Shown: positions 915 to 56,523 of the stretch, piece after piece
Layout: the number at the start of each line of letters is the position of its first letter
Position numbering within the stretch: position 1 is the stretch's first letter
Source of the DNA: Burkholderiales bacterium
Lineage (GTDB): Bacteria > Pseudomonadota > Gammaproteobacteria > Burkholderiales > SG8-39
NCBI GenBank assembly: GCA_050248795.1
Contig: JBFWRS010000001.1
Span: forward strand, 11,587-75,586
Direction of reading: 5' to 3'
Length of the DNA: 64,000 bases
Position numbers and translations under genes: made by a program
Notes under the pieces: model-generated
Seen by the model: only the letters and a program-made list of their open reading frames with translations
What the model was told of the DNA's origin: nothing
Databases searched by the model: none

Positions 915-942
915 CCCGGCGCCACACGCTCAAGGAGGGGGA

Positions 943-4876: not shown

Positions 4877-6066
4877 ACCGCCCTGCGTCGGGCGGCGCCC
4901 AGCAGCGCGGCGAGCATCAACGCCGCCACCAGCCAACCCAGGTGCGGCAGCCACGGCAGCAACGCCTTTGCCGGCGCTTGCGCGGCGACGCCTGTCGCGA
5001 ACGCGCCCACGCGCAGGAAGGCTGCAAGCGCCAGTACCGCGAACATGCTGCCGAGCAGCGCGCCCTCGCGTCGCGACCTGCCGAATGCAATCGCCGCCGA
5101 ATAGCTCGCCATGCTCATCGCGCCCCAGCACCCGCCGGCAAGGAACTGCGCGGTGCTCAATGCAGCCAATCCTGGCGCGAGCACGCTCGCCAGCGTGGCG
5201 ATCGCCCCCAGCGCGGCCGCCGCAGTCATTACCGCCACCGGCCCGTGCCGCGCGACCAGCCCGGACGCGGGAAACATCATGACGTTGAAGCCGATCCAGA
5301 ATATCGGCATCAGGTAGGGCAGTTCCGCAGGCGAGGCATAGCGCAGGTACTGGCCGGCGGAATTGAGCGCGAAATGGACCTGGAAGCCGAGCGCCATCAG
5401 CACCAGCGCGGCGAAGAACACGTACACCAGCCTGCGTCCCTCGGCCGAATCGAAGTCGAACGGCGGCTCCGATTCGCCGGCCGGCTGCGGCGCCGCGCCG
5501 GCGAGCCTGCGCTCGACCCACACCAGGCCTCCGACCGTGGCGAGCAGCGTCAGGCTGGACAATGCGAACGGAATGCGCGGGTCGATGTTGCGCAGCGTCA
5601 CCCCGAGGTAGGGACCGATCGCACCCGCAATCGCGGTGCCGGTCAGCACCAATGCCGACAGCCGCGGCACGCTGGGCCTGGCGGCGTAACGTCCTAGCAG
5701 CGCCCAGGTCGGCGAGCGCAGCGCGGAGGATGTCACCGCCCAGACCGCGATCAGCGCGAGCAGCACTGCAGGCGAGCCGCCGGCGAACGGCAGCACGAAG
5801 AAGGCTGCGCACGACACCGCGGTGACTGCCAGGATCCAGCCGCCGATGCGCGCGAGCCCGCGGCGCACGCGGTCCACCCAGAACCCGGTTAGCACGTCGG
5901 CGAGCGCGAACACCAGCTGGTCGGCGACGATGATCCAGGGCACCCATTCCTTCGCGATGCCTGCCTTCGCCGCCAGTTGCGGCAGGTAGATGACGTAGAT
6001 GGTCCAGGTCGTCGCGAACAGGAACTGGACAACGCCGAGGTAGATCGCGGCCGAGCGCGGCACCAT
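4873..6066 (-). CDS. MFS transporter
   Basis: 397 aa with about 12 hydrophobic segments and MFS-like loop motifs. Confidence 0.8.
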   Translation of the reverse strand: MVPRSAAIYLGVVQFLFATTWTIYVIYLPQLAAKAGIAKEWVPWIIVADQLVFALADVLTGFWVDRVRRGLARIGGWILAVTAVSCAAFFVLPFAGGSPAVLLALIAVWAVTSSALRSPTWALLGRYAARPSVPRLSALVLTGTAIAGAIGPYLGVTLRNIDPRIPFALSSLTLLATVGGLVWVERRLAGAAPQPAGESEPPFDFDSAEGRRLVYVFFAALVLMALGFQVHFALNSAGQYLRYASPAELPYLMPIFWIGFNVMMFPASGLVARHGPVAVMTAAAALGAIATLASVLAPGLAALSTAQFLAGGCWGAMSMASYSAAIAFGRSRREGALLGSMFAVLALAAFLRVGAFATGVAAQAPAKALLPWLPHLGWLVAALMLAALLGAARRRAV

Positions 6067-6071
6067 CCCGG

Positions 6072-6467
6072 TCAGGGCTTGAACTGCGGATCCACCGGAA
6101 AGCGCAGGCCGTTGGCAAGGCGGTTGGTCTCGTTGGCGAGGCCCACCACAGCCATCAGCTCCATGAACATGGCGTCGCTCATGCCTTTCCTGCGCGCCGA
6201 GGCCGTGTGCGAATACGTGCAGTACTCGCAGTTGTTGGTCGCGCTTACCGCGACGTAGACCATCTCCTTCACCAGCGGGTCGAGCGCACCCGGCGCCATC
6301 ACCTGCCTGACGTGGTCCCAGGTGCGCCTCAGCATCGCCGGATCATTCGCCAGCGCCTTCCAGAAGTTGTTGACCCAGTCCGTGTTCCGGGCCTGCATGA
6401 TCTCGTCGTAGACCGCGCGCACTTCGGGCGGCGCCTCGGCATACTCCACCAGTTTCACCAGCGACAT
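6072..6467 (-). CDS. carboxymuconolactone decarboxylase (AhpD-like) family protein
   Basis: 131 aa with the family redox motif NNCEYCTYSH (CxxC...H). Confidence 0.85.
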   Translation of the reverse strand: MSLVKLVEYAEAPPEVRAVYDEIMQARNTDWVNNFWKALANDPAMLRRTWDHVRQVMAPGALDPLVKEMVYVAVSATNNCEYCTYSHTASARRKGMSDAMFMELMAVVGLANETNRLANGLRFPVDPQFKP

Positions 6468-13901: not shown

Positions 13902-14096
13902 CTACTCGCTTTCCTCGATCCACATCATCTGGATCGCCTCGAGGATCTTCTCGCCCGAGTGGTTCGGGTCATCGTCGAATCCGGGCAGCGCCAGCACCCA
14001 CTGGCGCAGGTCGGTAAAGCGCACAGTCTTCGGATCGACGTCGGGATGCGCCTCGGTGAGCGCGATCGCGATGTCGCGCGAGTCGGTCCATTTCAT
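13902..14096 (-). CDS. iscX: Fe-S assembly protein IscX
   Basis: 64 aa, [38 protein letters not shown] overlap with the fdx stop. Confidence 0.9.
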
Positions 14097-14434
14097 GAGT
14101 TCAGCTCGCGGGCGTGGTTGATGGTGTACTTGGGGATCTCGATGACGAGGTCCTTGTCCGCCATTCTTGCCTGGCAGGAAAGCCGGGAGTTCGCTTCCAG
14201 CCCCCAGGCCTTGTCCAGCATGTCCTCTTCCTTTTCCTCCGCCTCGGCGAGCGAGTCGAAGCCTTCGCGCACGACGACATGGCAGGTGGTGCACGCGCAG
14301 GACTTCTCGCAGGCATGCTCGATGGCGATTCCGTGTTCCAGCAGCGCGTCGCACAGCGACCCGCCCGCAGGCACCTCGAACTCCGCCCCCTGCGGGCACA
14401 GCTGCTGATGCGGCAGTACCTTGAGCTTCGGCAT
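14093..14434 (-). CDS. fdx: ISC-system [2Fe-2S] ferredoxin
   Basis: MPKLKVLPH...[14 protein letters not shown]...SRLSCQ cysteine pattern, in isc context. Confidence 0.95.
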
Positions 14435-16933: not shown

Positions 16934-17257
16934 CTAGACGTTGAAGCTTTCCCCGCAGCCGCACTCGTCCTTCACGTTGGGGTTGCGGAACTTGAAACCC
17001 TCGTTCAGCCCTTCGCGGGTGTAGTCGAGCTCGGTGCCATCTATGTACGGCAGGCTCTTCGGGTCCACCAGCACCCGCACGCCGTGGCTCTCGAACTGCA
17101 CGTCCTCGGGCGACGCCTGGTCGGCAAACTCGAGCTTGTAGGCAAGTCCCGAGCATCCGGTCGTGCGCACGCCCAGGCGCAGGCCGTAGCCCTTGCCGCG
17201 CTTCTGCATGAAGCCCTGGACGTGGTTGGCGGCCTTCTCGGTAAGCGTGATCGACAT
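16934..17257 (-). CDS. iscA: Fe-S cluster assembly protein IscA
   Basis: 107 aa with GCSGLAY...CGCGESF. Confidence 0.95.
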
Positions 17258-22019: not shown

Positions 22020-22560
22020 CGTCGATGCCGCGCCGTTCGCGCATCGCGCGACCGACGACGGCGAGTTCCGCGTCGGTCAGCAGGCGCGCCGCCATCGGCA
22101 GCAGCTCGCTTTCCTCGCGCGCGATGTGGCGCTCGTAGAGCCCCGCCAGCGCCGCCACGTCCTCCTGCGGCAGGGACACCGGGTTTCCGGCGGCAATCTG
22201 CGCGAGCGGCCCTCGCACCCGCGCCCACAGGATCTCCAGTTCGCGATGCTCAGCGCTGAGCGCCGCGGTGAGCTCGCGGATGCACACCGCGTCCGAGCCG
22301 GCCATCGCCTCGATGAGCGCGGGGAACAGATCCTCTTCCTCGTCCGCGTGATGCTGCGCGCCGGAGGTATCGAAGTAGCGCATCACGCGCGCCGCCGCCG
22401 CGCGCGCTTCGTCGTCGGCGCCATGCGCGGCAACGTGCGGCACCAGCCGTCGCAGCGTCGCGCACTGGCGTTCGACGCGGCCATGGCAGGCAGCAAGCAT
22501 TTCCAGCGGCGCTTCCGGGCCGGCCGCGGGCGTAGGGAATCCGGGAAAATCGTCGCTCAT
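22012..22560 (-). CDS. hemerythrin-domain protein
   Basis: Starts at ATG 22560 (MSDDFPG...). Contains LAACHGRVE...HHADEEEDLFPAL...HIAREESELLP (HHE cation-binding type). Confidence 0.7.
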   Translation of the reverse strand: MSDDFPGFPTPAAGPEAPLEMLAACHGRVERQCATLRRLVPHVAAHGADDEARAAAARVMRYFDTSGAQHHADEEEDLFPALIEAMAGSDAVCIRELTAALSAEHRELEILWARVRGPLAQIAAGNPVSLPQEDVAALAGLYERHIAREESELLPMAARLLTDAELAVVGRAMRERRGIDAT

Positions 22561-22666
22561 CTGCCTGGATCGCCTGTCGTGCCCCGCCGGAAGCATCACG
22601 TGTATCGGAGTGTAAATCATGTAAAACCGCTCGACGTTCGATTGTCGCGTGCGTCAAATAGGCATC

Positions 22667-30039: not shown

Positions 30040-30594
30040 ATGCCAAGAGTCAGCGAAATCGACGACGACGCCGGGGACCTGGTTCTCGCCGAGTTGTTCG
30101 CCAGGGAGCGCGCTTCCTTTGGCGAACTGCTCAACTCGACGCGCGTGATGGCCCATTGCCCGGCGATCTTGCGCGCCGCCAAGCAGCTCGGCGCCGCTAT
30201 CGCGGAATCGGGCCGGCTGCCGAAGGGCCTGGTTGCGCTGGTGTCGCTGCGCGTCGCGGCGATCAACGGCTGCCCGTTCTGAGTCGACATCAACTCCGTC
30301 CGTGTGGCGGAGGTCGAGGGCGGCGCGGCGAAGCTCGCCGAGCTCCCCGCGTGGCGCGAGAGCGGTGCGTTCAGCGAGCTCGAGCGAGCGGCGCTCGAGT
30401 GCGCCGAGCGCATGACCTATACCGGCCAGCGGGTCGACGACGCGCTGTTCGCGCGCTTGCGAGCGCTGCTGGACGACCCGGAGATCGTCGAGCTGGCGGC
30501 CGCAATCGCGCTGGAGAATTTCCGCAGCAAGCTCAACTCCGCGCTAGGCGTGGAGGCGCAGGGCTTTTGCCTGCTGCCGCGGCGCGAGCGATGA
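30040..30594 (+). CDS. AhpD/carboxymuconolactone-decarboxylase family protein, probable selenoprotein (Sec at 30280-30282)
   Basis: Track ORFs 30040..30282 and 30304..30594 are in the same frame. The TGA replaces the second Cys of the family CxxC (INGCPF-TGA-VDIN), and the downstream part (AWRESGAFSELERAALECAERMT) continues the same fold. Confidence 0.7.
30284..30317 (+). promoter_or_regulatory. SECIS-like hairpin immediately 3' of the in-frame UGA
   Basis: UCGAC (30284-88) pairs with GUCGA (30313-17), followed by a 5-nt bulge. CUCCGUC (30294-300) pairs with GGCGGAG (30306-12). The loop CGUGU (30301-05) contains GU and starts 19 nt after the UGA. Confidence 0.6.
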
Positions 30595-31456
30595 GCCCGC
30601 GGAGGTGGCCGCTGTCCTGCGGCTGCTTGGCGACATGCCGCAGCCCGGTCAGCGCGGGCATGAGCAGCTTAGGATCGGCGTCCTCCGCGTAGACTGCGTA
30701 GGCTGGATAAAGGAACTCCGGGGCGCCCCGCACGAGCTTCAGCTTGCCCGTACGCAGATAGGGCGCGGCGGCGTGCTGGCGGAAGTAGCCTGAGCCGCCC
30801 GCGCGCAGGATGTACTGCAGGCCGAGCGGACCGAGATCCACGTAGGTGCCGGGACTGGAGAGTTCGGGGTAGGTGAGATTGTGCTGCGTGGCGAACTCCG
30901 GGCCCCAGTCCACGTAGATGTAGTCGCCGCCACGCACCGCCTTGCCGCGGGTGGTGACGAGGAGCAGCTTCTCTTTCATCAGCAGCTCCACTTTCAACCC
31001 GGGCCGCTGCTGCGGCGTGTACAGCACGCCGATATCGACGATGCCTGCCCCGACCTGGTCCATGAGCTGCTGCGGCAGCGCGACGCGGGCGCGCACGGCG
31101 AGCTCGGGCACCGAGCGCCTCATCCACACCATCCACTCGAGCAGCAGGGGATCCCACAGGCTGAGCTCGCCAGCCACTGCGATGACCGCGCGCCGCCCGT
31201 GCGGCACCGCGACCTGGTGGCGCGCGCGCTCCCAGAGCTGCACCAGCGAGGGGGCAAAGCGCAGGAACTCCTCGCCCGCCGCGGTGAGCGCAGCGCCGGA
31301 CTTGCTGCGCTCGAACAGCTTGCGCCCGAGAAGCGATTCGAGCTTGCGCACGCGCACGCTCACGGCAGTCTGCGTGACGTGCAGGCGCTCTGCGGCGCGG
31401 ATGAAGCTGCCGCTGCCGACGATCTCCAGAAAGGTGCGGGCGAGGGCGATCTCCAT
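30533..31456 (-). CDS. LysR-family transcriptional regulator
   Basis: N-terminal HTH MEIALARTFLEIVGSGSFIRAAERLHVTQTAVSVRVRKLE plus a LysR substrate-binding domain. Divergent from sodB. Confidence 0.9.
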   Translation of the reverse strand: MEIALARTFLEIVGSGSFIRAAERLHVTQTAVSVRVRKLESLLGRKLFERSKSGAALTAAGEEFLRFAPSLVQLWERARHQVAVPHGRRAVIAVAGELSLWDPLLLEWMVWMRRSVPELAVRARVALPQQLMDQVGAGIVDIGVLYTPQQRPGLKVELLMKEKLLLVTTRGKAVRGGDYIYVDWGPEFATQHNLTYPELSSPGTYVDLGPLGLQYILRAGGSGYFRQHAAAPYLRTGKLKLVRGAPEFLYPAYAVYAEDADPKLLMPALTGLRHVAKQPQDSGHLRGLIARAAAAGKSPAPPRLARS

Positions 31457-31579
31457 GCTGGTCCTCCGTTCGGACTTATATAACCGATAGTTTACTTAAA
31501 CAAGATTTAGTTTCGTTTTACTTCACAAAGCACTGAGGCCATGATCGACGGCACTAGAACCGACGCGCCTGGAGAGCCC

Positions 31580-32212
31580 ATGCCACTGACCTTGCCTTCA
31601 CTGCCCTACGAGCACGCCGCACTCGCGCCGTTCATGTCGGACGCAACGCTCAAGCTGCACCACGGCGTGCACCACGCCGGCTACGTGGATCGGGTGAACG
31701 CGCTCGCCCGCGGCACCGCGCTGGCGGACTTGCCGTTGCGCTCGATCGTCGAGCGCAGCGCGCGCGACCCGGCGGCGCGTGGCCTGTTCAACAGCGCGGC
31801 GCAGGCCTGGAATCACGACTTCTTCTGGCGCTCGCTGCGCCCCGCCGGGGAGCGGTCAGCGGTGCCTGCGCGCCTGGCGGCGCGCATCGCGAAGGATTTC
31901 GGCGGCCAGGAGCGTCTGATCGCGCTGCTCAAGAGCACGGCGCTCTCGGTCTTCGGCAGCGGCTGGGTGTGGCTGATCGAGCGCGACGGGCGCCTGCGCG
32001 TCGAAGCGACGGCGAACGCCGACGGCCCGATCGTGTCCGGCGGCGTACCCGGCCTCGTGATCGACGTCTGGGAGCACGCGTACTACCTCGACTACCAGGC
32101 TCGGCGCGCGGACTACGTCTCCGCGGTGATCGAGCACCTGCTCGACTGGGATTTCGCCGAGCGCAACCTGTTCGCCAACCAGCGGGAACGAGGCCATGAG
32201 GCCAACGTGTGA
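31580..32212 (+). CDS. sodB: Fe/Mn superoxide dismutase
   Basis: LPSLPYEHAALAPFMS...LHHGVHHAGYV...WNHDFFW...DVWEHAYYLDYQ. ATG at 31580. Confidence 0.9.
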   Translation: MPLTLPSLPYEHAALAPFMSDATLKLHHGVHHAGYVDRVNALARGTALADLPLRSIVERSARDPAARGLFNSAAQAWNHDFFWRSLRPAGERSAVPARLAARIAKDFGGQERLIALLKSTALSVFGSGWVWLIERDGRLRVEATANADGPIVSGGVPGLVIDVWEHAYYLDYQARRADYVSAVIEHLLDWDFAERNLFANQRERGHEANV

Positions 32213-32586
32213 AGCGTGGCTCGCCCAAGCGGGTACAGGTCAAGTCCGTCGCCGTGCGCGCGGAACCGCAGGACGGCATGCGGGTCCTGGTGGAGCGGCG
32301 CTGGCCGCGCGGGGCGTACCGACAGGGTGCAGCCATCGACCTGTGGCTGCGGGATGCCGCGCCGAGCCCCGCGCTGTCCCTGTGGTACCGCCGCTACCCG
32401 CGACGCTGGAAGCGCTTCCGCCATTGCTATTGGGCGGAGCTCGCGAGGCGGCCGCGCATCGTGCACCTGCTCGAGGATCTGCGGCGGCGCACTCCCGTGA
32501 CACTGCTATTTGGCGCGCAGGACGATTCGCGCAACCACGCGGAACTGCTGCGCGAGTTCATTGACCGTAAAGGAGATCTGCCATGA
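32209..32586 (+). CDS. DUF488 family protein
   Basis: VLVERRWPRG...DLWLRDAAPSPAL..W......W..F...Y..EL......LLFGA.D...NHA. GTGA overlap with the sodB stop. Confidence 0.7.
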   Translation: MKRGSPKRVQVKSVAVRAEPQDGMRVLVERRWPRGAYRQGAAIDLWLRDAAPSPALSLWYRRYPRRWKRFRHCYWAELARRPRIVHLLEDLRRRTPVTLLFGAQDDSRNHAELLREFIDRKGDLP

Positions 32587-33281
32587 AAGCCAGAGACATC
32601 ATGACTTCGCCGGTGATCACCGTCGCGCCCGAGACCACTGTGAAAGAGGTCGCGACGCTGCTCTACGAGTGCCGCATCGGCGCGCTGCCAGTCGTGCAGG
32701 ACGGAAGCGTGGTCGGGATCGTGAGCGAGTCAGACCTGCTACGCCGCCACGAGATCGGCACCGATCGCTTCGAGCGTGCCGGATCGTGGTGGCTGTGCCT
32801 GTTCGGGACGGACGGGTCCCTGCATGACTACGTGCGCTCCCATGCGCGCTTCGCGCGCGACGTGATGACACGCGGGGTGGTGACCGTCACGCCCGATACG
32901 TCGCTCGCGGAGACCGCGCAGTTGCTCGAAGGCCGCAGGATTGGTCGCGTGCCTGTCGTGGACGCCGGCAAGCTCATCGGCATTGTGAGCCGCGCAAACC
33001 TGGTCCAGGCGCTCGCGGCGCGCGCGCCCGCGCCCGCCGAGCCGCAAGCCGTGGATGACGAGAGCATCCGGCGCGCACTGCTCGAGGAGCTGGAGCGTCA
33101 GACGTGGTGGCGCATCGATCGCGCGGCCGTGCTGGTCACCAACGGCGTGGTGCAATTCCAGGGCATGGTTGACACCGACGCCGGCCGTCCGGCCGCGCGC
33201 GTGGCGGCCGAGAATATCCCCGGCGTGCGCGCCGTGGAGGATCACCGTTTCCTCAGCTCGAACGCGCCCACGATGACATGA
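32583..33281 (+). CDS. CBS-pair plus BON domain protein
   Basis: Two CBS motifs (ARDIMTSPVITV...GALPVV, ARDVMTRGVVTV...GRVPVV) and a C-terminal BON-like VVQFQGMVD...AAENIPGVRAVED. ATGA overlap upstream. Confidence 0.8.
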   Translation: MKARDIMTSPVITVAPETTVKEVATLLYECRIGALPVVQDGSVVGIVSESDLLRRHEIGTDRFERAGSWWLCLFGTDGSLHDYVRSHARFARDVMTRGVVTVTPDTSLAETAQLLEGRRIGRVPVVDAGKLIGIVSRANLVQALAARAPAPAEPQAVDDESIRRALLEELERQTWWRIDRAAVLVTNGVVQFQGMVDTDAGRPAARVAAENIPGVRAVEDHRFLSSNAPTMT

Positions 33282-33324
33282 GCGCGAGCGGCCTTTCCTC
33301 AACGTCATCCCCAAGGAGACAGTC

Positions 33325-33897
33325 ATGCATTCGTTCCTGACCATCGCCGATCCCCACGCAGCGCGCAGGATGTTTCTTGCGCGCTCGGGCCTCGTCCTTT
33401 CGGGCGCGGCCGTCGCGCTGCTCGCCGGCCGCGACGCGCTCGCCGCGCGCAGCGGCGCCGGCCGCGCCGACGACGTGCGAATCCTGAACACCGCGCTCGG
33501 CGCGGAGCACGAGGCGGTGGCCGCCTACCAGCTCGGCGCCGAGAGCGGCCTGCTGGAGAAGCCGGCGCTCTCGCTCGCGCTGCAATTCCAGGGCCACCAC
33601 AAGGAGCACGTCGAGCTGCTCGCGCAGACCGTGCGCAAGCTCGGCGGCAGCGCGGTGTCGGCGCGCTCCAAGTACGATTTCCCCGCGCACCAGCTGAAGA
33701 CCCAGGCCGATGTGCTGCGCTTCGCGGCGCAGCTCGAGCGCGGCGCGGTAAGCGCGTACCTCGGCGCGGTTCCCCTGTTCGGCAACCGCGACCTCGCCAA
33801 GGCCGCGGCGAGCATCCTCGGCGACGAAGCGATGCACTGGGCGGTCCTGCGCAACGCGCTAGGCGAGGACCCTGTTCCGGTCGCGTTCGTGTCGTGA
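33325..33897 (+). CDS. Tat-signal ferritin-like domain protein
   Basis: Twin-arginine-like ARRMFLARSGLVLSGAAVALLAG, then ferritin-like helices LNTALGAEHEAVAAY, QGHHKEHV, ERGAVSAY and GDEAMHWAVL. Confidence 0.65.
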   Translation: MHSFLTIADPHAARRMFLARSGLVLSGAAVALLAGRDALAARSGAGRADDVRILNTALGAEHEAVAAYQLGAESGLLEKPALSLALQFQGHHKEHVELLAQTVRKLGGSAVSARSKYDFPAHQLKTQADVLRFAAQLERGAVSAYLGAVPLFGNRDLAKAAASILGDEAMHWAVLRNALGEDPVPVAFVS

Positions 33898-34277
33898 CTG
33901 CGGCGCCGCTTGCGCTCGCCGTGGTCCTGGCGCTCGCCGCGCTGCCCGCGGCGGGGGACGAGGCGCGCGGCGAGCAGGTGTACGCGCGCTGCCTCGCCTG
34001 CCACGCGCTCGCCTATGACCGGGTCGGGCCGCGCCACTGCGGCCTGATCGGCCGGCGCGCCGGCACGGTCCCGGGGTTCGCGTACTCGGAGGCGATGCGG
34101 CAGTCGGGAATCGTGTGGAGCGCGAAGACGATGGATCGCTTCCTGGCCGATCCGTCGGGTGTGGTACCCGGTACGACGATGACCTACGCGGGAGTCCCGG
34201 ATGCACGCGATCGCGCCGATCTGATCGCGTACCTTGCGCGCGCGGGTCGTTCCCCCGAATGCAGCGCGTCGCGATGA
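33894..34277 (+). CDS. class I c-type cytochrome
   Basis: Signal peptide, heme site CLACH, distal Met region GTTMTY. GTGA overlap with the ferritin-like gene. Confidence 0.8.
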   Translation: MTAAPLALAVVLALAALPAAGDEARGEQVYARCLACHALAYDRVGPRHCGLIGRRAGTVPGFAYSEAMRQSGIVWSAKTMDRFLADPSGVVPGTTMTYAGVPDARDRADLIAYLARAGRSPECSASR

Positions 34278-34289
34278 TGGTGCCGTGAC

Positions 34290-34643
34290 GTGATCCACAT
34301 CAAGCGCACCTACGAGCCGCGGGAGAAATCTGACGGGCGCCGCATTCTGGTGGAGCGGCTGTGGCCGCGCGGCATGAGGAAGGAGGCCCTTGCGGCCGAC
34401 GCCTGGGCGAAGGACGTCGCTCCCAGCACCAAGCTGCGCAAGTGGTTCGGGCACCGGGGGGAGCGATGGGCCGAGTTCAGGCGCCGATACCGTACCGAGC
34501 TGGACACGGTTCCCGCCGCGTGGGCGCCGATTCTGGAGGCGGCTGCGCGGGGACGCGTGACGCTGCTCTACAGCGCGCGCGATACCGTTCACAATTGCGC
34601 CGTCGTGCTGCAGGAGTACCTCGGCGAAAGGGCGAAGCGATGA
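34290..34643 (+). CDS. DUF488 family protein (second copy)
   Basis: GTG start. IHIKRTYEP....DG.RILVERLWPRG...AWAKDVAPS..LRKWF.H....W.EF...Y..EL. Confidence 0.75.
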   Translation: MIHIKRTYEPREKSDGRRILVERLWPRGMRKEALAADAWAKDVAPSTKLRKWFGHRGERWAEFRRRYRTELDTVPAAWAPILEAAARGRVTLLYSARDTVHNCAVVLQEYLGERAKR

Positions 34644-34951
34644 CCACGCACCCGGCTGACGTTTCGATCGTCGGCGGCGCACCGAAGCCTGCTGCCCCGA
34701 GCCTTCTCGAGAAGGTTCTGCGCAGCCTCTCCGTGATCACCATGCTGCTGACCGTGCCGCAGGTGCTGGCGGTGTGGGTCGGACCGCATCCCGGCGGCGT
34801 CTCGCTCGTATCCTGGGTCGCGTACCTGGTCGCCGCGTGCCTGTGGTTCGTCTACGGGCTGCAGAGGCGCGACAAGACGATCTACCTCGCCTGCGTCGGC
34901 TGGGTCGTGCTGGATGCGGCGATCGTGGCCGGCGTGATCGTGCGCACCTGA
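34640..34951 (+). CDS. small 3-TM membrane protein, PQ-loop/SemiSWEET-like
   Basis: 103 aa with three hydrophobic segments. The first carries the motif LLTVPQVLAVW. ATGA overlap upstream. Confidence 0.45.
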   Translation: MTTHPADVSIVGGAPKPAAPSLLEKVLRSLSVITMLLTVPQVLAVWVGPHPGGVSLVSWVAYLVAACLWFVYGLQRRDKTIYLACVGWVVLDAAIVAGVIVRT

Positions 34952-34991
34952 AACCGGCGCAACTTCTGGCTTGGCGCGAGGTCATTCAAGT

Positions 34992-35663
34992 ATGGTAAGT
35001 GCTTCTATCGCCTTAGAGGAAGACCCGTCGCGCACTCCAGTGATGCTGTCGCTCCCCGTGCGTGCGCGGCTGCTCGACGCCCTCCTAGCGGGAGGAATCG
35101 GCCTGGCGCACGAATGCGGCGGCAAGCTGGCCTGCGCGACCTGCAGGGTCATCGTGCGCGAAGGCAGCGCCCATCTGGAGCCGGCGAGCGAAGACGAGCT
35201 GGACATGCTGGACGCCGCGGGCGTTCTGGCTCCGCAAGCACGCCTCGCATGCCAGGCGATCGGCCTTGGCGGCGACGTGGTGATCGAGATCCCGCTGATC
35301 GAAGCGGCGCCGCCCGTCGCGATCGCCGCGGGACCCGCGCTTCCCGTTGCGCTCACCGAGCACGCGGCGAGGCACATCGCGTCGCAGCTCGCGAGCCGGC
35401 CGGCTGGGGCCGCCGTGCGCCTCGGCGTCTCGCCCGCGGGCTGCTCGGGTTTCCGCTACCGCCTCGAGTTCGCCGACGCGATCCGCGAGAACGACGTGGT
35501 CTTCGAGAGCCGCGGCGTGCGCATCGCGGTCGAGTCCTCCAGCCTGCCGCACGTGCAGGGGACGAGGCTCGACCTGGTGCGGGAAGGGCTCGCCCGGCGC
35601 CTTCGCTTCGACAACCCGAACGTGCGCAGCACCTGCGGGTGCGGCGAGAGCTTCGGGGTATGA
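34992..35663 (+). CDS. fusion protein: [2Fe-2S] ferredoxin (Fdx/adrenodoxin type) N-terminal domain + IscA/HesB A-type carrier C-terminal domain
   Basis: The N-terminal half has ECGGKLACATCRV...RLACQ (4 Cys ligand pattern of Fdx-type ferredoxins). The C-terminal half has LTEHAARHI...GCSGFRY...CGCGESFGV. Compare iscA and fdx in the same window. Start is ATG 34992 or TTG 34971. Confidence 0.75.
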   Translation: MVSASIALEEDPSRTPVMLSLPVRARLLDALLAGGIGLAHECGGKLACATCRVIVREGSAHLEPASEDELDMLDAAGVLAPQARLACQAIGLGGDVVIEIPLIEAAPPVAIAAGPALPVALTEHAARHIASQLASRPAGAAVRLGVSPAGCSGFRYRLEFADAIRENDVVFESRGVRIAVESSSLPHVQGTRLDLVREGLARRLRFDNPNVRSTCGCGESFGV

Positions 35664-35664
35664 C

Positions 35665-35877
35665 ATGCAGGACGTCGAGCGCTTTCGCATCGGATTCCTC
35701 GTGACGCGCGACGGCGAGGCGGCGGCTGCGGCCTGGGTGCGGCGCACGCTCGCGATCTATCGGCGCGCGGTTCTCGACCCGAAGCATTTCGCGAGCAAGC
35801 CCGACTACCGGCACCTGTTCCTCGCCTCCTGCGCGGAGTTCAGGCGCTGGCTCGCCAAGCGGACGCTCCCGTGCTGA
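35665..35877 (+). CDS. small hypothetical protein
   Basis: 70 aa, starting 1 nt after the fusion-gene stop. Real 3' part of track ORF 35347..35877. No family recognised. Confidence 0.4.
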   Translation: MQDVERFRIGFLVTRDGEAAAAAWVRRTLAIYRRAVLDPKHFASKPDYRHLFLASCAEFRRWLAKRTLPC

Positions 35878-36026
35878 GCCAGGACGAAAAGCTGGACGAG
35901 GCGCTGAAGGACACGTTTCCTGCGAGCGACGCCTTCTACCTCGCACCGGATGACACGCGCGCAGCCGTGAGCGGGCAAGCGAGTACCCCGGGGCCATGCA
36001 TCGCACCCGCCGACCAATCAGGATGA
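35871..36026 (+). CDS. very small hypothetical protein (51 aa) with DEALKDTFPASDA motif
   Basis: Not in the track because it is under 60 aa. The GTG start overlaps the upstream stop by 7 nt. The motif resembles small conserved proteobacterial proteins that I recall only loosely. Confidence 0.3.
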   Translation: MLSQDEKLDEALKDTFPASDAFYLAPDDTRAAVSGQASTPGPCIAPADQSG

Positions 36027-36121
36027 AGCAGTCGCCGGACTCCGGTTTTGACGTAGCTCAATGTACCCTCGCGTTCACGGGATACCATTGCGAAACAGCG
36101 TTTTCAGCATAGGAGGATCCC

Positions 36122-36574
36122 GTGACAGTCGCCATCCCGCTCCCTCTCAAGAAGGAGCACAACGAACTCCACGAGGAGCTCGTACGTGCTACGAAGGAGC
36201 CCGGCGCGGTAGGCGAGGCCGCGAAGAAGGTCGCGCGCCTCCTCCATCCCCACTTCGTATCCGAGGAAGAATATGCCCTTCCGCCGCTCGGGCTGCTGGC
36301 GGCCGTCGCGCGCGGCGAGACGCCGGCTGAAGCCGGGCAAGGGCTTGCTATGGCCGAACGGCTTCGCAAGGAGTTGCCGCGGATGCTCCAGGAACACGGC
36401 GCAATCGTCGAGGCGCTCGCGGAGTTGAGCGAGGCCGCGCAGCGCGAGAGCAAAGCCTGGGTCGTGCGCTTCGCGGAGAATCTCACGCTGCATGCCCAGA
36501 CCGAGGAGGAAGTCCTCTACCCAGCGACGCTGGTTCTCGGAGAGATCCTTCGGCGCCGAGGCGTCAAAGGCTGA
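36122..36574 (+). CDS. hemerythrin-like (HHE-type) domain protein
   Basis: LKKEHNELHEEL...LLHPHFVSEEEYALPPLG...LQEHGAIVEAL...LHAQTEEEVLYPA. Confidence 0.6.
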   Translation: MTVAIPLPLKKEHNELHEELVRATKEPGAVGEAAKKVARLLHPHFVSEEEYALPPLGLLAAVARGETPAEAGQGLAMAERLRKELPRMLQEHGAIVEALAELSEAAQRESKAWVVRFAENLTLHAQTEEEVLYPATLVLGEILRRRGVKG

Positions 36575-36877
36575 CTGCGTCTTTCGGTGCCCCGGCAGGC
36601 GCCGCGGTGTCACATCGTTCCGTCGGGTGATCGCGGGGTCAGGTCTCGATTCACGGGCGAGGAGCCCGGCAAGCTGTGTCGCCTACCGCATACGCCGCCT
36701 GGCGCTCGGCCGCCCGCTCGCGCGCCGACCTGCGCGTGGTGGCGACAAACGAAGACCTACTTGCCCGTGGAGGAGCACCGGACACGCAATCCGGGCACCT
36801 GAGCGTCGCCACGCTCCCCCCCCGGGCGCATGTCGGCGATAATCGCCGAGGTCAGGGGCGTAGGCTTCCCCGGTGCA

Positions 36878-36937
36878 GGTGGCAGTGTAGGTCGTCGCGA
36901 CATCGAGCCTCCCGAGGTGTCGACCTACACCGCCACC
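36878..36937. repeat. 17-bp near-perfect inverted repeat with 26-nt spacer
   Basis: GGTGGCAGTGTAGGTCG (36878-36894) versus the reverse complement of CGACCTACACCGCCACC (36921-36937) matches at 16 of 17 positions. The right arm contains the 12-mer GACCTACACCGC. Confidence 0.85.
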
Positions 36938-37134
36938 GACACTGAAGAGCCCGACAAGGACTTGCAAGGTCTTGCCCAGACATGCCCGGATAAGCGGTCC
37001 GTGAAGGCCTGATTCCTTTGGAACGACAAAACCTCAAAGCGCAGAACGGCAGCGCCGACAAGACCCTGGGTCAGGTCGGAATCTCTGCCCACACTCCGGT
37101 GATGCAGCAGCGTTTTTTCCCTATGAGAATTGGC

Positions 37135-37170
37135 GTAGGTTTGGGTGACCTACACCGCGACCTACACCGC
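37135..37170. repeat. short hairpin plus perfect tandem 12-mer (GACCTACACCGC x2)
   Basis: GTAGGT (37135-40) N7 ACCTAC (37148-53), then GACCTACACCGC at 37147-37158 and again at 37159-37170. Confidence 0.85.
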
Positions 37171-37323
37171 TAATACTTGTCCAGTCTTGAACATCACGCG
37201 GTAACCATGCCTCCGCGCAGCGGCCGCAATCGGCCAGAAGCAGTCGTTCGCTGCCAAAATGATGCTTTGCGTCAGCACTTTCACCTCGTGCGCTTTGTTT
37301 ACGCAGGCCCGGATTTCGTAGGC

Positions 37324-39340
37324 CTACACCTTAAGTAGTTCATCGCATTGCCGGGTGATGTGTTCCGGCACTGAATCGAATCGGCGCGGATTCAACTGCA
37401 TGATGTATTCGTTCTCCACGTGGTAAGTCTCGTTGATATATTTCTTCACCAAGTCGTTATCCGGCACATCTGGTGTAACGATTCGGAATAGCTGCAACTT
37501 CTCATACCGATTCTTCGTCGCTTTATAGGCCGCGAGCATCTGTGCCTCATCTTTGACTCGGGCCAAGAGCTGAGCGTAGTCGAACGTCGACAACTTTTCC
37601 TTAATCCGCGCGGTGGCCTTTTCAATTTCCGCCGCCGTCATCGCTGTCCCGTCAGCTCTGGTCGGTAGTTCGCGCTTATGTAGAAGGCTCGACAGTAGGT
37701 TGTACTCATCTCCCTTATCGTCAGCGATTTCGTAGTTTCGCCGCAGATACACCAATTGGATGATCGGTTCGTTTACGGCCTGGAGATTCTCGCTGCAGAT
37801 CTGGCCGAACGACACGATATCGACCTTCGTAACAGGTAGCTCGGCTATGTGCCCGCTCTGCGCGGTTAGAAACGACGCGAGCGGCATGGGCTGGAAGCTG
37901 GCTCCGACGGTCTTGACTAGATCAATTACCGGCTCAATGTCGTGTGTAAGCATCAAGGCAGTGCGACCCTGAAAGCTATCCTTGCCTCGGAACAGCGTAG
38001 TCAAGATCGCGAATTTCTTGGTCTTATCAAATGACGAAATCGGATCGTCTAGAACGACTAAGTCGGGATTCTTCGTAAGGCAGTCGTACATGAAGAGGAC
38101 GAGCGCGAAAGCGTTCTTTTCGCCATAGCTGAGATGTGCCCCGCCGTTTTCTATGTAGTTGGCGAAATCCTCATGCTTGAGCTTCATCTTGTACGTCACA
38201 CCATCCAACTGAATATCGACCGCGTATCGGTAGCCAGCATTTCGCAGAAAGGTGTTTATCTCGGCTTTGTACTTGCCGATTGTTTTCTCAATAGCATGCT
38301 TCTGTTTGTTCACCTCCCCTTGTAGCTGTCCGGCCTTTGCCAGGACCTTATCCAAGCATTTGTTCACCTCATCCACTATCTTGCGGGTCGATTCCGCGTT
38401 GACGTGATGGAGAAGCGAGAGGTCTATTTTCATGTCGGAAAGAATCTGTTGAGCCTCTTGGACTTTCTCTATCTCACGCAAATAGAAGAACGAAATGCCC
38501 TTGGCACTACCTAGTTTTCCGCGCAGCGTATCCGTCTGGGCCTTGATCTCCTTCAGGTAGTTGATGGCCTCTGCGCTTGGTGCCTGGTGATGCCGCAAGA
38601 TCTCTTCTAGCTTCTTCAAAGTTTCGGCGCTGAAGTAAGTTCCTAAGCGCGAGACAATGCCCTGCAGCGCCACGAGATGTTCTATTGCTTTAGCGTCATA
38701 CTCGTCAGCGACGGCGAGGATGGTGTCCTTCTTATCGGCGGTAGGAGCCGTACAGAACGGACAGTTGTCCGACAGACCTAAGAACTCCTTACCTTGAAGC
38801 TGCCACTTAATCCACTGTATATTTGTGGGACTCTTAATGAAGTCGCTATAGCCCGTTAGCTTCTCTGGGACGTGCTCTAGTTTGTTTCCCTTAGCTAGTC
38901 CACGCGCAATTCGTCCGGACTTCGCATAGCCAGATTGCGACTTGCCAAAGCTCTCACTTAATGCAAGCAAGTCATTTATTACGCGATCAATGTCTTCATT
39001 CTTGCGAAAGATCTGCTGGATATCTTCAACCATTCCTTCGATCTCTTTCATCTTCGTGTCGTAATCGGCGTTGCGGACGAAGATGTCGAAGCTGTTCTTT
39101 ACGAGTTCATCCGGTTGAAAGACGAACTGGCTTATATAGCCTTCGTTGAACGTCGCCACCGACTTGAAGCCATCCGCCCCTTGTACTTGGGGTTGTTTGT
39201 CTGCTGATTTGTCGCCGCGAAATTTGAACGGCTGAAGTTCGGCCAGCTTCGCGCCTCCGCCTTCGGCGTTCAAGGCGATCGCTTTGGCAATCGTGCTCTT
39301 TCCCACACCATTCGGGCCGTACTTGACATTAAGTCGCCCC
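37324..39340 (-). pseudogene. 5'-truncated AAA_13-type (RloC/PrrC-like, Rad50-like) ABC ATPase, cut by the IS3 element
   Basis: In-frame codons GRLNVKYGPNGVGKST (Walker A) run directly into the IS end at 39341 with no N-terminus left. A CPFC zinc-hook-like motif sits in a long coiled-coil insert. Also present: LSYGEKNAF signature, LVVLDDPISSFD Walker B and MLTHD H-loop. GC is clearly lower than the surroundings. Confidence 0.75.
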
Positions 39341-39406
39341 TGAGCTGCCCGGCTTTTTCTGTACCAGGTTGAGTGTTGTAGTGTTCAACGTGGAAGGAGA
39401 AGGCGC

Positions 39407-39685
39407 ATGGCGAATAAAAAGTATAGCCCGGAGCAGGCGGTGGCGAGGCTTCGGCAGATCGAAGTGCTGCAGGCAGGGGGCAAGTCGATTCCGGCGGCAT
39501 GCAAGGAAGCGGGGATCACGGATGTCACGTACTACCGCTGGAGGAAGGAGTACGGCGGGCTGAAGGTGGACCAGGCCAGGAAGTTGAAGGACCTGGAGCG
39601 CGAGAACCAGCGGCTTAAAAAGTTGGTGGCGGACCTGTCGCTGGAGAAGGCGATCCTGAAGGACGTGGCCGAGGGAAACTTCTGA
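39407..39685 (+). CDS. IS3 transposase OrfA (HTH + leucine zipper)
   Basis: 92 aa with ...[57 protein letters not shown]. Confidence 0.9.
39673..39679 (+). promoter_or_regulatory. -1 programmed ribosomal frameshift heptamer G GGA AAC
   Basis: X XXY YYZ pattern in the orfA frame, 4 nt before the orfA stop. The orfB frame is open from here. Confidence 0.6.
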
Positions 39686-40545
39686 GCCCCGAGCGGCGGC
39701 GCAAAGCCGTCGCGCATGCTCGGGGCAAGTACGGTGTGTCGGAGAGGAAGGCCTGTGCGGTGCTCGCGCAGCCCAGAGGCACGCAGCGCTACGTGCCGAC
39801 GGTGCGAGCCGACGAGGACCTGCTCACGCAGGCGATCGTGCGCTTGGCGTGCCAGTACGGGCGCTACGGCTACCGGATGGTCGCCGGGATGCTCAGGTAC
39901 GGCGGCTGGCGGGTGGGCGAGGAGCGGGTACACCGGATCTGGAGGAAGGAAGGGCTGAAGGTGCCCAGGAAGCAAAAGCCCCGCGGGCGGCTGTGGCTGA
40001 ACGATGGCAGCTGCATACGGCTGAGAGCCGAGCGGGCGAACCACGTGTGGAGCTACGACTTCGTGACGACCTGGACGCACGACGGGCGGGTGCTGAGGCT
40101 CTTGACGCTGATCGACGAGTACACGCGCGAGTGCCTGGCGATCATGGTGGCAAGGAGCATCGGCGCGCAGCAGGTGATCGAGCTGCTGGCCGAGGTGATG
40201 TTGCGCAGGGGAATCCCGGAACACATCCGCTCGGACAACGGGCCGGAGTTCACCGCCAAGGTGCTGCGGCAGTGGTTGGGGCAGATCGGCGCGAACACGC
40301 TTTACATCGCGCCGGGCAGCCCGTGGGAGAACGGCTACTGCGAGAGCTTCAACGGCACGCTGAGGGATGAGCTGCTGAACGGGGAGATCTTCTACAGCCT
40401 TAACGAGGCGCGGATCGTGATCGAGCGCTGGCGGCGCGAGTACAACGAGGTGAGGCCGCACAGCTCGCTGGGCTACAGGCCGCCGGCGCCGGCGGCCTGT
40501 AGCCACTACCCCGCTGCGCTCGATGAGCCGCAGGCTATGCAGTAA
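39673..40545 (+). CDS. IS3 transposase OrfB frame (DDE integrase core), expressed as an OrfAB fusion by -1 frameshift
   Basis: The -1 frame reads ...[30 protein letters not shown]... Later come WSYDFV (D), IRSDNGPEF (D) and [16 protein letters not shown] (E). Confidence 0.85.
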
Positions 40546-53767: not shown

Positions 53768-55615
53768 TCATGCCGCCTTTGGCAGGCCGGATGGCTGCGC
53801 CGCGTTCGCAAGCTGCGCGACGATGCTTGCGACGTCCGGCTCGGTCAGCGTCTCGCGCTCGAGGAGTCGTGCCGCCGCGCTTTCCAGCGTTTCCCGATGG
53901 TGCGTGAGAAGCTCCAGCGCACGCTTGAAGGCGGAGGCGACGATCTCGGTCACGGCCTTGTCGATGGCTTGCGCGGTGTGCTCGCTGTAGCTGCGCGGGG
54001 CGGTGTAGCCGGGCACCTGCAGCAGCGGCGAGGCTTCCTGCTCGAGCGAGAGGTTGGCGAGGGACGGGTGCATGCCGTAGCGCGTCACGATGGAGCGCGC
54101 GATGTCCGAGACCTTGGCGAGATCGTCTGCGGCGCCGGTCGAGACCCGGCCGAATACGAGCTGCTCCGCGGCGCGGCCGCCGAGCAGCACCGCCATCTTG
54201 TTCTCCAGCTCCTCGCGGGTCATGAGGAAGCGGTCCTCGGTCGGGCGCTGGATGGTGTAGCCGAGCGCGCCGATGCCGCGCGGGATGATGGAGACCTTGT
54301 GCACCGGATCGCTGCCCGGCAGGGTCATCGCCACCAGCGCGTGGCCCATCTCGTGATAGGCGACCGTGCGGCGCTCCATGGGGTTCAGGATGCGGCTCTT
54401 CTTCTCAAGTCCGGCGACGATGCGCTCCACCGCCATGGTGAAGTCGTCGAGCGTGACCGCATCGCTGCCCCGGCGCGTGGCGACGAGCGCCGCCTCGTTC
54501 ACCAGGTTGGCGAGATCGGCGCCCGAGAACCCGGGTGTCAGCGCTGCAATGCTGGCGAGCTCCACGCCGGGCGCAAGCCGGATCTTCTTGATGTGCACCT
54601 CCAGGATCTGCACGCGTCCGGACTTGTCCGGCCGGTCGACCAGCACCTGGCGGTCGAAGCGCCCGGCGCGCAGCAGGGCTGGATCGAGCACTTCGGGCCG
54701 GTTCGTGGCCGCCAGAAGCACCAGCCCGGTGGAGGGATCGAAGCCGTCCAGCTCGGCGAGGAGCTGGTTGAGCGTCTGCTCCTTCTCGTCGTGCCCGCCC
54801 GTGATACCGAAGCTGCCGCGTGCGCGTCCGAGCGCATCGAGCTCGTCGATGAAGATGATGGCAGGGGCCTTCTGCCGTGCCTGCTCGAAGAGGTCGCGCA
54901 CTCTCGCCGCGCCGACGCCGACGAACATCTCGACGAATTCAGAGCCCGAAATCGAGAAGAAGGGGACGCCCGCCTCGCCCGCCACCGCCCTCGCGAGCAG
55001 CGTCTTGCCGGTGCCCGGTGGGCCGACAAGGAGCACGCCCTTTGGCAGCCGGCCGCCGAGCCGCCCGTAGCGCCCGGGATCCTTCAGGAATCCCACCACC
55101 TCGCGCAGCTCGTCCTTCGCCTCGTCGACGCCTGCCACGTCGGCGAAGGTGACCTTGGTGTCGGTCTCGACGTAGACCTTCGCCTTGCTCTTGCCGATCG
55201 ACATCATCCCGCCCAGCCCGCCGTGCTGGCCCATCACGCGCTTGGCGAGGAACATCCAGATGCCGAAAAAGATCAGCGCCGGCAGCACCCAGCCGAGAAC
55301 GTCCCGCAGGAACGTGTTCTCCACGACACCGGTGAACTTGATGTCGTACTGCGAGAGGTCCTTGGCCAGCTCGGGGTCGACGCGTGTCGTGACGATGCGG
55401 GTGCGCCCGTCGGTGGTGGGTTTCTTGAGCTTGCCTTGGATGAGATTGTTCGAAATGGCGATCTCCTCCAGCTCGCCGTTCTTCAGGTGGTGCTGGAATT
55501 CGCTGTAGGGAATCGTCTGCACCTGGTTCATGTTGACCCAGGCGTCGCGCAGCAGGACCACCGCGGTCAGGGCGATCACCAGGTACCAGAGGTTGAACTT
55601 GGTCTGCTTTTCCAT
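53768..55615 (-). CDS. ftsH: ATP-dependent zinc metalloprotease FtsH (island-borne paralog)
   Basis: Two N-terminal TM segments, AAA+ Walker [21 protein letters not shown], and the zinc site [11 protein letters not shown] at 55615. Confidence 0.9.
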
Positions 55616-55743
55616 CTTCGCAGCGTGACACCGGCGGGCAAGGCAGGGTTGATCAAGGTCAAATTCGGGCGCCATAGCCGCCGGCGCGGCGCCCGAAACG
55701 CCGGAAAGGGGGTTACGGCACCACGCTCATGGCTGCGCTCTCG

Positions 55744-55995: not shown

Positions 55996-56121
55996 GGAAA
56001 TCTCCTTTTGAAGTGCATTCCACACAAGGAGGACTCTGCAGCCTCCCATAGTGGGAGGGTCAAGCGCTTGACACAGATCAAAAGGAGCCCGCCCGGCGCC
56101 GGGCGTCGGCGGGAAACGGCT

Positions 56122-56523
56122 TCAGCGCCAGGCTTGCTCGGCGCCGCCGCTCGTACGCGCTGTTCCGAGCGCTCGCCCGGCACCGGACGTCATGGAAGCC
56201 ATGCGGCGGCATGCCTCGGCGCACCGCCGGCACGCCTCGGCGCATTCGCGGCAGTGCTGCATCTTGCCGTGCTTGTCGCATTCGTCGGCGCACGCGTCGC
56301 ATACTTTGGCGCAGGTCTCGCAGACGGCCGCCGCAAGCTCGCTTCCGCGCCCCATGTAGCCGGCTGCAAGGCGACACATTTCGGCGCAGTCGATATCCAG
56401 CTGGATGCAGCGGGCCAGCATCTTGACGTCGCTTTCCCGAAGACAGGCGGCCGCGCAGTGGTCGCAGGCGGTGGCACAGGCATAGCAGGCATCGATGCAG
56501 GACTTCATCTGGTCATGGGGCAT
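56122..56523 (-). CDS. four-helix-bundle Cys-rich copper-binding protein (Csp/DUF326-like), no signal peptide
   Basis: Repeated CxxxC/CxxC on helices: CIDACYACATACDHCAAAC...CAEMC...CETCAKVCDACADEC...CRECAEACRRCAEAC. Confidence 0.8.
   Translation of the reverse strand: MPHDQMKSCIDACYACATACDHCAAACLRESDVKMLARCIQLDIDCAEMCRLAAGYMGRGSELAAAVCETCAKVCDACADECDKHGKMQHCRECAEACRRCAEACRRMASMTSGAGRALGTARTSGGAEQAWR

Follow-up and report, generated by a model that had tools for sequence, protein, structure and literature searches.

Why would a bacterium join a [2Fe-2S] ferredoxin and an A-type iron-sulfur (Fe-S) carrier in a single polypeptide? The question is raised by a 64,000-nucleotide stretch of a Burkholderiales genome (contig JBFWRS010000001.1), here called the window, in which a gene at 34992..35663 (+) encodes both. 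A preliminary description of this stretch had proposed a natural fusion of an Fdx-type ferredoxin with an A-type carrier (ATC) of the IscA/HesB kind, and Pfam, NCBIfam, a sequence search of the PDB and an AlphaFold model are concordant with that view. Its product is probably a protein of Fe-S biogenesis with two domains, accessory to the housekeeping isc system; since the housekeeping isc genes are found at ~14-17 kb of the same window, the fusion is an extra paralogue.

Architecture of the fusion gene

According to the open reading frame (ORF) list and the sequence, the gene comprises 223 codons followed by a TGA stop at 35661..35663, and there is no internal stop codon. As originally described, one ORF carries two domains, Fer2 and Fe-S_biosyn, both of which score above their Pfam cut-offs. 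The likely start is the ATG at 34992, with an in-frame TTG at 34971 as an alternative; homologues of the protein share this Met start in the alignment, and a putative Shine-Dalgarno-like element (GAGG, 34978..34981 (+)) lies 10 nt 5' of the ATG. The ferredoxin domain of the ISC/adrenodoxin type occupies residues 1-102 (34992..35297 (+)). It is followed by a 16-residue linker rich in Pro and Ala (LIEAAPPVAIAAGPALP; residues 103-118, 35298..35345 (+)), which was delimited by model confidence (pLDDT, predicted local distance difference test) and the family alignment, and by the A-type carrier domain (IscA/SufA-like, ATC-II-like; residues 119-223, 35346..35660 (+)). All motifs quoted in the preliminary description are found in the translation: HECGGKLACATCRV with C42, C48 and C51, RLACQ with C87, GCSGFRY with C151, and CGCGESFGV with C215 and C217.

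That the N-terminal half is ferredoxin-like is confirmed by profile search, with a Fer2 (PF00111) match over residues 21-89 that reaches 46.6 bits at a cut-off of 21 (E=3e-12). The four ligand codons (C42, 35115..35117; C48, 35133..35135; C51, 35142..35144; C87, 35250..35252; all (+)) show the spacing C-x5-C-x2-C-x35-C. An alignment of 127 fusion proteins revealed these four cysteines to be invariant, and likewise H40, E69 and D71, the latter two being part of the acidic docking helix (EDELDMLD, residues 67-74). The domain may hold a redox-active [2Fe-2S] cluster. The top NCBIfam model is fdx_isc (TIGR02007), but its 66.6 bits are below the equivalog cut-off of 132.1; by this score and by its location outside the isc operon, the domain does not belong to the housekeeping ISC ferredoxins. 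The fdx gene with which it had been compared is genuine, encoding a 112-residue Fdx at 14093..14431 (-) that is 48% identical to the N-terminal domain.

One claim of the preliminary description did not hold, namely that the ferredoxin part is N-terminally shortened relative to Fdx. The first ligand cysteine is residue 42, exactly as in E. coli Fdx, whose structure 1i7h aligns in register (25-102 on 25-102; TIGR02007, 26-102 on 25-101). With this full-length register and the Met start shared by homologues, a truncated N-terminus was rejected for the protein of the window. Shortening does occur in a sister subfamily (47 of the 127 sequences; proteins of 204-212 residues), in which only 28 residues precede the first cysteine; this 13-residue loss removes the first strand of the ferredoxin. 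At the other end of the domain, the C-terminal tail of ISC Fdx (~10 residues) is absent from the fusion and the linker takes its place.

The part beyond the Pro/Ala linker had been described as a complete A-type carrier, and this is borne out by the PF01521 match over residues 119-218 (60.4 bits, cut-off 26.3, E=2e-16), by three cysteine ligands and by the IscA/SufA fold of the model. The ligand codons are C151 (35442..35444), C215 (35634..35636) and C217 (35640..35642), all (+); the cysteines, situated in GCSG and in the C-terminal C-G-C, are invariant across the 127 aligned fusion proteins. The domain passes the generic A-type carrier model TIGR00049 with 99 bits (cut-off 58.8) and misses the equivalog cut-offs for IscA (TIGR02011, 116.6 versus 150.6), SufA (TIGR01997, 96.6 versus 136.2) and ErpA (NF010147, 69.5 versus 117). 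Going by these scores, it is closest to IscA/SufA (ATC-II-like), yet a distinct paralogue. The iscA gene used for comparison in the preliminary description is again real (106 residues, 16934..17254 (-)) and its product is 52% identical to the C-terminal domain. In the classification of Vinella et al. 2009, an A-type carrier sensu stricto consists of a single complete PF01521 domain without an extra domain (PMC2682760). Because of its additional N-terminal Fer2 domain, the fusion falls into the 'other' category of that scheme, where NfuA-like proteins were also placed.

Authenticity and occurrence of the fusion

An independent Logan assembly (locus L081) contains a call for the identical 223-residue protein. 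When 5.8 billion protein clusters were searched, all of the 120 best matches carried both Pfam domains (58-84% identity, 194-243 residues), which answers the call for a domain-architecture check on Fer2 plus Fe-S_biosyn; more than 120 clusters at 90% identity share the architecture, with domain content checked on the best 120. After clustering of the library at 50% identity, about 8-10 representatives span both domains. In addition, 41 fetched loci, drawn from many samples, passed a regular-expression test for an unbroken ferredoxin-then-carrier frame, and the fusion is kept intact across a family that spans 48-84% identity. Species-representative genomes yielded one true fusion (L001); one of the search patterns, built on the IscA C-terminus, drew mostly ordinary iscA genes. 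In L001, an uncultured betaproteobacterium represented by a long-read metagenome-assembled genome (MAG), the coding sequence of the ferredoxin domain is divided between two frames at 6040..6223, probably by a sequencing frameshift.

The public record of the gene (P0272 = MGE0873659.1 / MGE3676334.1, from a Burkholderiales MAG) lists a 113-residue 'HesB/IscA family protein' at 35319..35663 of the window. This annotation begins at an ATC codon (I110) within the linker and omits the ferredoxin half. As the call starts at a linker codon, it reflects a choice of start site and neither a different sequence nor evidence for two genes. With annotation truncated here and generic Fe-S assembly labels on the family, the fusion architecture is hidden in public records.

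A merger of adjacent fdx and iscA genes by an assembly or sequencing indel can be practically dismissed: the short public call and the split ferredoxin domain of L001 would speak for it, but there is no in-frame stop, the same ORF recurs in an independent assembly, the single frame is retained in more than 120 clusters and 41 loci across many samples and assemblers, and the linker has no conserved Met that could serve as an internal start (114 of the 127 linkers are entirely Met-free).

A second fusion in a marine lineage

A further protein, P0135, is a 242-residue Fdx::IscA fusion on marine contigs of 34% GC and belongs to a 90%-identity cluster of 797 members. The gene was located in three loci (L087, 1734..2462; L088, 1831..2559; L089, 1990..2718), where it is embedded in a streamlined operon of the order iscS-iscU-[fusion]-iscX-ndk that lacks hscBA. 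The N-terminal half of the protein corresponds to an entire canonical ISC Fdx and shares 59% identity with E. coli Fdx across the full 111 residues. The marine protein and that of the window agree in the order of ferredoxin and carrier and in the presence of all ligands, but they are of independent origin and only ~31-36% identical overall. Moreover, the marine form keeps the Fdx C-terminal tail and resides in the housekeeping isc operon, whereas the window fusion is an accessory paralogue. The Fdx::ATC fusion thus arose at least twice, once in a high-GC Burkholderiales family and once in the marine 34% GC lineage; that this happened independently makes it more likely that ferredoxin and carrier act on one another. 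Matches in SAR86 genomes were rejected as fusions; there, iscU, iscA and fdx are adjacent, with iscA and fdx as separate neighbouring genes.

Predicted structure

The structure prediction that had been recommended was run with AlphaFold on a 127-sequence alignment of fusion proteins. It gave two confident domains with the folds of ISC Fdx and IscA, connected by a disordered linker (mean pLDDT 80.6; values <50 at residues 104-113 and 1-13). The pTM (predicted template modelling score) of 0.49 means that no interdomain orientation is defined. Foldseek matched the carrier domain to E. coli IscA (1r94, TMt 0.90, root-mean-square deviation (rmsd) 1.6 Å) and SufA (2d2a, TMt 0.82), and the ferredoxin domain to E. 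coli Fdx (1i7h, TMt 0.70, rmsd 2.0 Å) as well as to FDX2, adrenodoxin and putidaredoxin. By sequence and fold together, the top PDB relatives are E. coli IscA (1s98/1r94), SufA (2d2a) and ISC Fdx (1i7h); neither search of the PDB returned a solved chain spanning both domains. The linker is 16 residues long in 95 of the 127 family members.

Proposed function

What might such a protein do? We propose, with a rough probability of 0.45, that the fusion acts as an Fe-S carrier linked to stress or denitrification, whose tethered ferredoxin donates electrons for the reductive coupling of [2Fe-2S] to [4Fe-4S] clusters or for their repair. According to this proposal, the carrier domain would dimerise and hold labile clusters via C151, C215 and C217, while C42, C48, C51 and C87 of the ferredoxin domain would ligate a [2Fe-2S] cluster that is stable and redox-active. 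The ferredoxin would swing on its length-conserved 16-residue Pro/Ala tether, and electrons could pass from it to the carrier site in cis or across the dimer. Two [2Fe-2S] clusters would then be coupled reductively into one [4Fe-4S] cluster, or damaged clusters be rebuilt, comparable to the action of free FDX2 on mitochondrial ISCA1-ISCA2. The fusion would be deployed when Fe-S clusters are under attack, either by superoxide stress or by nitric oxide (NO) from denitrification; this use under cluster damage is suggested by the gene context. Inferred in this scheme are which clusters are bound, which way the electrons flow, how the dimer is arranged, which reductase feeds the ferredoxin and that expression depends on stress.

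The context was studied in 80 metagenome loci (designated by L numbers) that were fetched with a profile of the N-terminal domain plus linker, 34 non-redundant fusion loci being surveyed; neighbouring genes were counted only where confirmed by Pfam. In four of the 34 (L095, L104, L106 and L114), NnrS is encoded no more than two genes away from the fusion. The fusion is flanked by hemerythrin genes in the window, L082, L086, L104 and L106, five loci in all; in L104 and L106, the hemerythrin is fused to DUF2249. NorB is present in the L086 locus. In L106, a box of the DNR type is followed, all on one strand, by hemerythrin/DUF2249, nirS, a small cytochrome c gene, the fusion and nnrS. In L104, the order is DNR box, hemerythrin/DUF2249, fusion, and then nnrS together with a gene for an Rrf2 regulator that resembles NsrR and RirA. 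Palindromes of the NsrR type gave no pattern match in any fusion locus or in the window at 29-37 kb.

Across 217 kb of DNA from the fusion loci, the motif TTGAYN4RTCAA is present ten times, at an expectation of 0.25 from first-order Markov simulations (simulation maximum 1). Apart from one or two positions, six of the ten occurrences match CTTGATnnnnATCAAG, the DNR consensus of beta-proteobacteria and an FNR-type box (PMC1274295). Boxes of the form CTTGAC-N4-ATCAAG are located ~40 nt 5' of the first gene in the fusion-containing operons of L104 and L106, and a box also lies upstream of an array of DUF6448, hemerythrin and fusion genes in L082. The fusion may belong to a DNR/NnrR (FNR-type, NO-responsive) regulon in L104, L106 and L082. 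The first gene after the box (CTTGACTCACATCAAG) encodes a 206-residue protein of hemerythrin and DUF2249/TusA-like parts in L104 (7398..8015) and L106 (5189..5809).

Several observations weigh against our proposal. The context is variable, and most loci with enough flanking DNA have no stress or denitrification neighbours. In the window itself, no DNR/FNR box was found at 29-37 kb around the fusion. No tightly linked ferredoxin reductase was seen at the fusion loci, nor a YgfZ/IBA57-like partner adjoining the fusion, and the AlphaFold model predicts no contact between the domains. The reverse flow, in which an IscA-bound cluster is donated to apo-Fdx in vitro, is equally compatible with the sequence. 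Finally, the mitochondrial reaction with FDX2 also requires IBA57, according to PMC9551070, which cites Weiler 2020.

A wider version of the proposal sees the fusion as a self-contained module for repair or re-assembly of clusters damaged by NO or superoxide, which would be co-expressed with NirS, NorB and NnrS under DNR-type control and would combine hemerythrin-type iron supply with electrons from the tethered ferredoxin. We consider this version rather unlikely. If true, denitrifying Burkholderiales would have a third, dedicated route next to ISC and SUF, and theirs would be the first bacterial system in which the coupling of [2Fe-2S] to [4Fe-4S] clusters by a ferredoxin on an A-type carrier can be followed within a single polypeptide.

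Alternative explanations

Could the ferredoxin be the product rather than the helper? The ferredoxin domain would then serve a neighbouring enzyme (SdhCD/SdhB-like, or one of denitrification) as an end product, with the carrier domain as its built-in loading chaperone. Such reloading would be useful where NO or superoxide keeps destroying the cluster, and the conserved acidic docking helix would fit an external redox partner. Fe-S and redox neighbours also recur, such as two Sdh_cyt genes with an SdhB-like gene in L082, L086 and L091 and a Rieske oxygenase in L112. Work by Ollagnier-de-Choudens in 2001, cited in PMC2682760 and PMC7144353, reportedly revealed a specific complex of IscA with Fdx; transfer of a cluster from IscA to apo-Fdx is reported from the same study. 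On the other hand, no single client enzyme is conserved beside the fusion, A-type carriers normally have many clients, and ISC matures ferredoxins without any fusion. The marine fusion takes the place of the separate fdx and iscA genes among the core isc genes, which fits a role in biogenesis better than one as end user. All in all, a self-maturing ferredoxin appears unlikely.

It is also doubtful that the two domains are joined for co-expression only, that is, as ISC components acting in trans whose benefit is limited to a 1:1 stoichiometry. The disordered linker and the missing interface in the model are what this explanation would predict, and each domain is still ~50% identical to its free-standing paralogue. 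Against it, the fusion has stayed intact across a family of 48-84% identity and has two independent origins, and the length of the linker is conserved. In addition, divergence from the housekeeping equivalogs is seen in both domains, whose scores below the NCBIfam equivalog cut-offs suggest specialisation.

Still less probable is an iron-handling module, in which the carrier domain, in keeping with the view of IscA as an iron chaperone, would bind mononuclear ferric iron and the ferredoxin would reduce it for release as Fe2+ to rebuild clusters, together with di-iron hemerythrin and ferritin-like neighbours. The affinity of IscA for Fe3+ is high (Kd about 1e-19 M) and the protein has been put forward as one of several iron donors, but this role is contested (PMC9268430). 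Hemerythrin does flank the fusion in the five loci named above, and a ferritin-like gene belongs to the array of the window and of L086. Yet the ferritin-like protein, because of its Tat signal, and the cytochrome c are probably periplasmic. The hemerythrins, moreover, score far below the cut-off for the Fe-S repair protein RIC (19-33 bits versus 204.7); on the same figures, they were rejected as RIC/YtfE orthologues.

Relation to known systems

On the formation of [4Fe-4S] clusters from [2Fe-2S] clusters on A-type carriers, and on the source of the electrons, the clearest evidence comes from human FDX2 acting on ISCA1-ISCA2 in vitro. With its reductase FDXR, FDX2 reductively fuses the [2Fe-2S] clusters bound to ISCA1-ISCA2 into a [4Fe-4S] cluster, according to PMC9551070 (citing Weiler 2020). 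The likeness to our protein lies in an adrenodoxin-type [2Fe-2S] ferredoxin that feeds electrons to an A-type carrier, which for the fusion is a proposal. The mitochondrial system consists of separate components with a heterodimeric carrier, and IBA57 is essential; by contrast, the fusion has a single ATC domain (presumably forming a homodimer), a tethered donor and no IBA57/YgfZ gene seen nearby.

IscA and Fdx of the E. coli iscRSUA-hscBA-fdx operon share families, ligand motifs and folds with the two halves of the fusion. They are encoded separately, whereas the fusion is one polypeptide with a Pro/Ala tether, encoded outside the isc operon. The loop around the cluster reads CGGxLACATC in the fusion but CExSCACTTC in ISC Fdx, and the halves of the fusion remain under the IscA and fdx_isc equivalog cut-offs.

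Two other multidomain proteins invite comparison. NifU, composed of an IscU-like domain, a ferredoxin-like domain with a permanent [2Fe-2S] cluster and an Nfu domain, follows the same design in that an assembly or carrier domain is joined to a redox [2Fe-2S] domain. However, its assembly domains NifU_N and Nfu are not homologous to PF01521, its central domain comes from a different ferredoxin-like family, and the NifU models of Pfam and NCBIfam have no match to the fusion protein. NfuA, with a degenerate ATC domain and an Nfu domain, is a precedent for an A-type-carrier fold joined to a second Fe-S domain. Its ATC domain, however, is devoid of the Cys ligands, and its partner is an Nfu carrier where that of the fusion is a redox ferredoxin; the NfuA models (TIGR03341 / NF008392) score 20-22 bits against ~268, and the fusion contains no Nfu domain.

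The preliminary description had been aware of no characterisation of the architecture, and our literature search likewise found no paper on a ferredoxin-IscA fusion, although subscription journals and domain-architecture databases may hold mentions. It had also read the fusion as a Rosetta-stone link between electron donor and cluster carrier. The logic stands, but the link is not new, with the IscA-Fdx complex and the action of FDX2 on ISCA1-ISCA2 already known; since it is experimentally established, the fusion corroborates the ferredoxin-carrier link and does not discover it. In this respect the fusion is a useful natural model, not a new kind of system. Having evolved at least twice, it provides independent evolutionary evidence that the partnership matters in bacteria too. 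As a compact single chain in which both partners are present at a fixed 1:1 ratio and the two sites differ spectroscopically, it would be well suited to studies of intramolecular reductive coupling. Its association with genes of denitrification and oxidative stress points to a specialised route of Fe-S maintenance in soil Burkholderiales.

Gene neighbourhood in the window

Upstream of the fusion lies an array of seven genes on the same strand (31541..34951), spaced by 4-nt overlaps or gaps of ~40 nt or less. As assigned by Pfam/NCBIfam, these encode an Fe/Mn superoxide dismutase (SOD; 31541..32212 (+)), a DUF488 protein (32209..32586 (+)), a CBS+BON protein (32583..33281 (+)), a Tat-signal protein of the Ferritin_2/DUF4439 type (33325..33897 (+)), a cytochrome c (33894..34277 (+)), a second DUF488 protein (34290..34643 (+)) and a SemiSWEET-like membrane protein (34640..34951 (+)). 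The genes from SOD to the fusion are probably co-transcribed; a simple consensus scan of 31300-36700 detected neither a sigma-70-like promoter nor an intrinsic terminator. Divergently oriented upstream of the array is a gene for a LysR-family regulator (HTH_1 + LysR_substrate, 30533..31456 (-)), which has a 75% identical counterpart at the same position in L086.

The stop codon of the fusion is followed after 1 nt by a gene for a 70-residue protein (35665..35877 (+)), which is also called in L081 and has no match in Pfam or NCBIfam. It shows 77% identity to the product of an 86-residue gene that follows the fusion in L086. As an obligate partner of the fusion it was rejected: it is adjacent in the window and L086 only, situated elsewhere in L082 and absent from the other loci. 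After a gap of 244 nt comes a gene for a hemerythrin-domain protein (36122..36574 (+); PF01814, E=1e-8), which has very weak similarity to RIC. A second hemerythrin gene of the window, at 22030..22620 (-), encodes the closest homologue (64% identity) of the hemerythrin directly upstream of the L086 fusion, and its match to RIC is weak as well (32.7 bits, cut-off 204.7).

L086, whose fusion is 71% identical to that of the window, has the same order of SOD, DUF488, CBS/BON, ferritin-like, cytochrome c, DUF488, SemiSWEET-like and fusion genes. Its hemerythrin gene is just upstream of the fusion, whereas that of the window is downstream. Extra genes in L086 encode Hsp33 and an extracytoplasmic function (ECF) sigma factor and, downstream, two Sdh_cyt proteins, an SdhB-like protein, zf-CDGSH, NAD_binding_1, NorB and Usp. 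Both DUF488 paralogues of the array, which have an 'inactive N3' subclade model as best match, are kept in L086.

In the window, the place of the L086 genes for Sdh_cyt x2, SdhB-like, zf-CDGSH, NAD_binding_1 and NorB is occupied by a low-GC island at ~36600..40500 (GC 0.55-0.60 versus about 0.68), which contains genes for an AAA_13 ATPase (37324..39306 (-)) and an HTH_Tnp_1 transposase (about 39407..39685). No tRNA genes were found anywhere in the window. Two FNR-type boxes, TTGATCAAGGTCAA at 55649..55662 and TTGACACAGATCAA at 56068..56081, are present in the window at 0.06 expected by chance; they lie between ftsH (53768..55675 (-)) and a gene for a Cys-rich four-helix protein of the DUF326 family (56122..56523 (-)).

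Other neighbours of the fusion

A universally conserved operon was rejected, as the context varies and many of the 34 loci share no neighbours. The pair of CDGSH and NAD_binding_1 genes, for example, recurs in three loci only (L082, L083 and L086), at 2-8 kb from the fusion. A trio of two Sdh_cyt genes and a gene for an SdhB-like Fe-S protein stands beside the fusion in L082, L086 and L091-93, representing three distinct contexts (coordinates of the trio: L086, 8940..10343; L082, 4867..6267; L091, 8774..10201). No flavoprotein gene was called adjoining the trio in any of these loci. The SdhCD/SdhB-like proteins could be a client of the fusion or its electron source. The Rieske oxygenase of L112 is likewise encoded near the fusion.

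In L083 and L085, a gene for a class Ib aminoacyl-tRNA synthetase resembling TrpRS (334-344 residues; L083, 6930..7964; L085, 6993..7997) is located 3-36 nt upstream of fusions of a 210-residue subfamily, on the same strand. In the soil contig L100, a gene at 746..1012, 21 nt 3' of the fusion, encodes a small Cys-rich protein with a Tat signal that appears HiPIP-like by reading.

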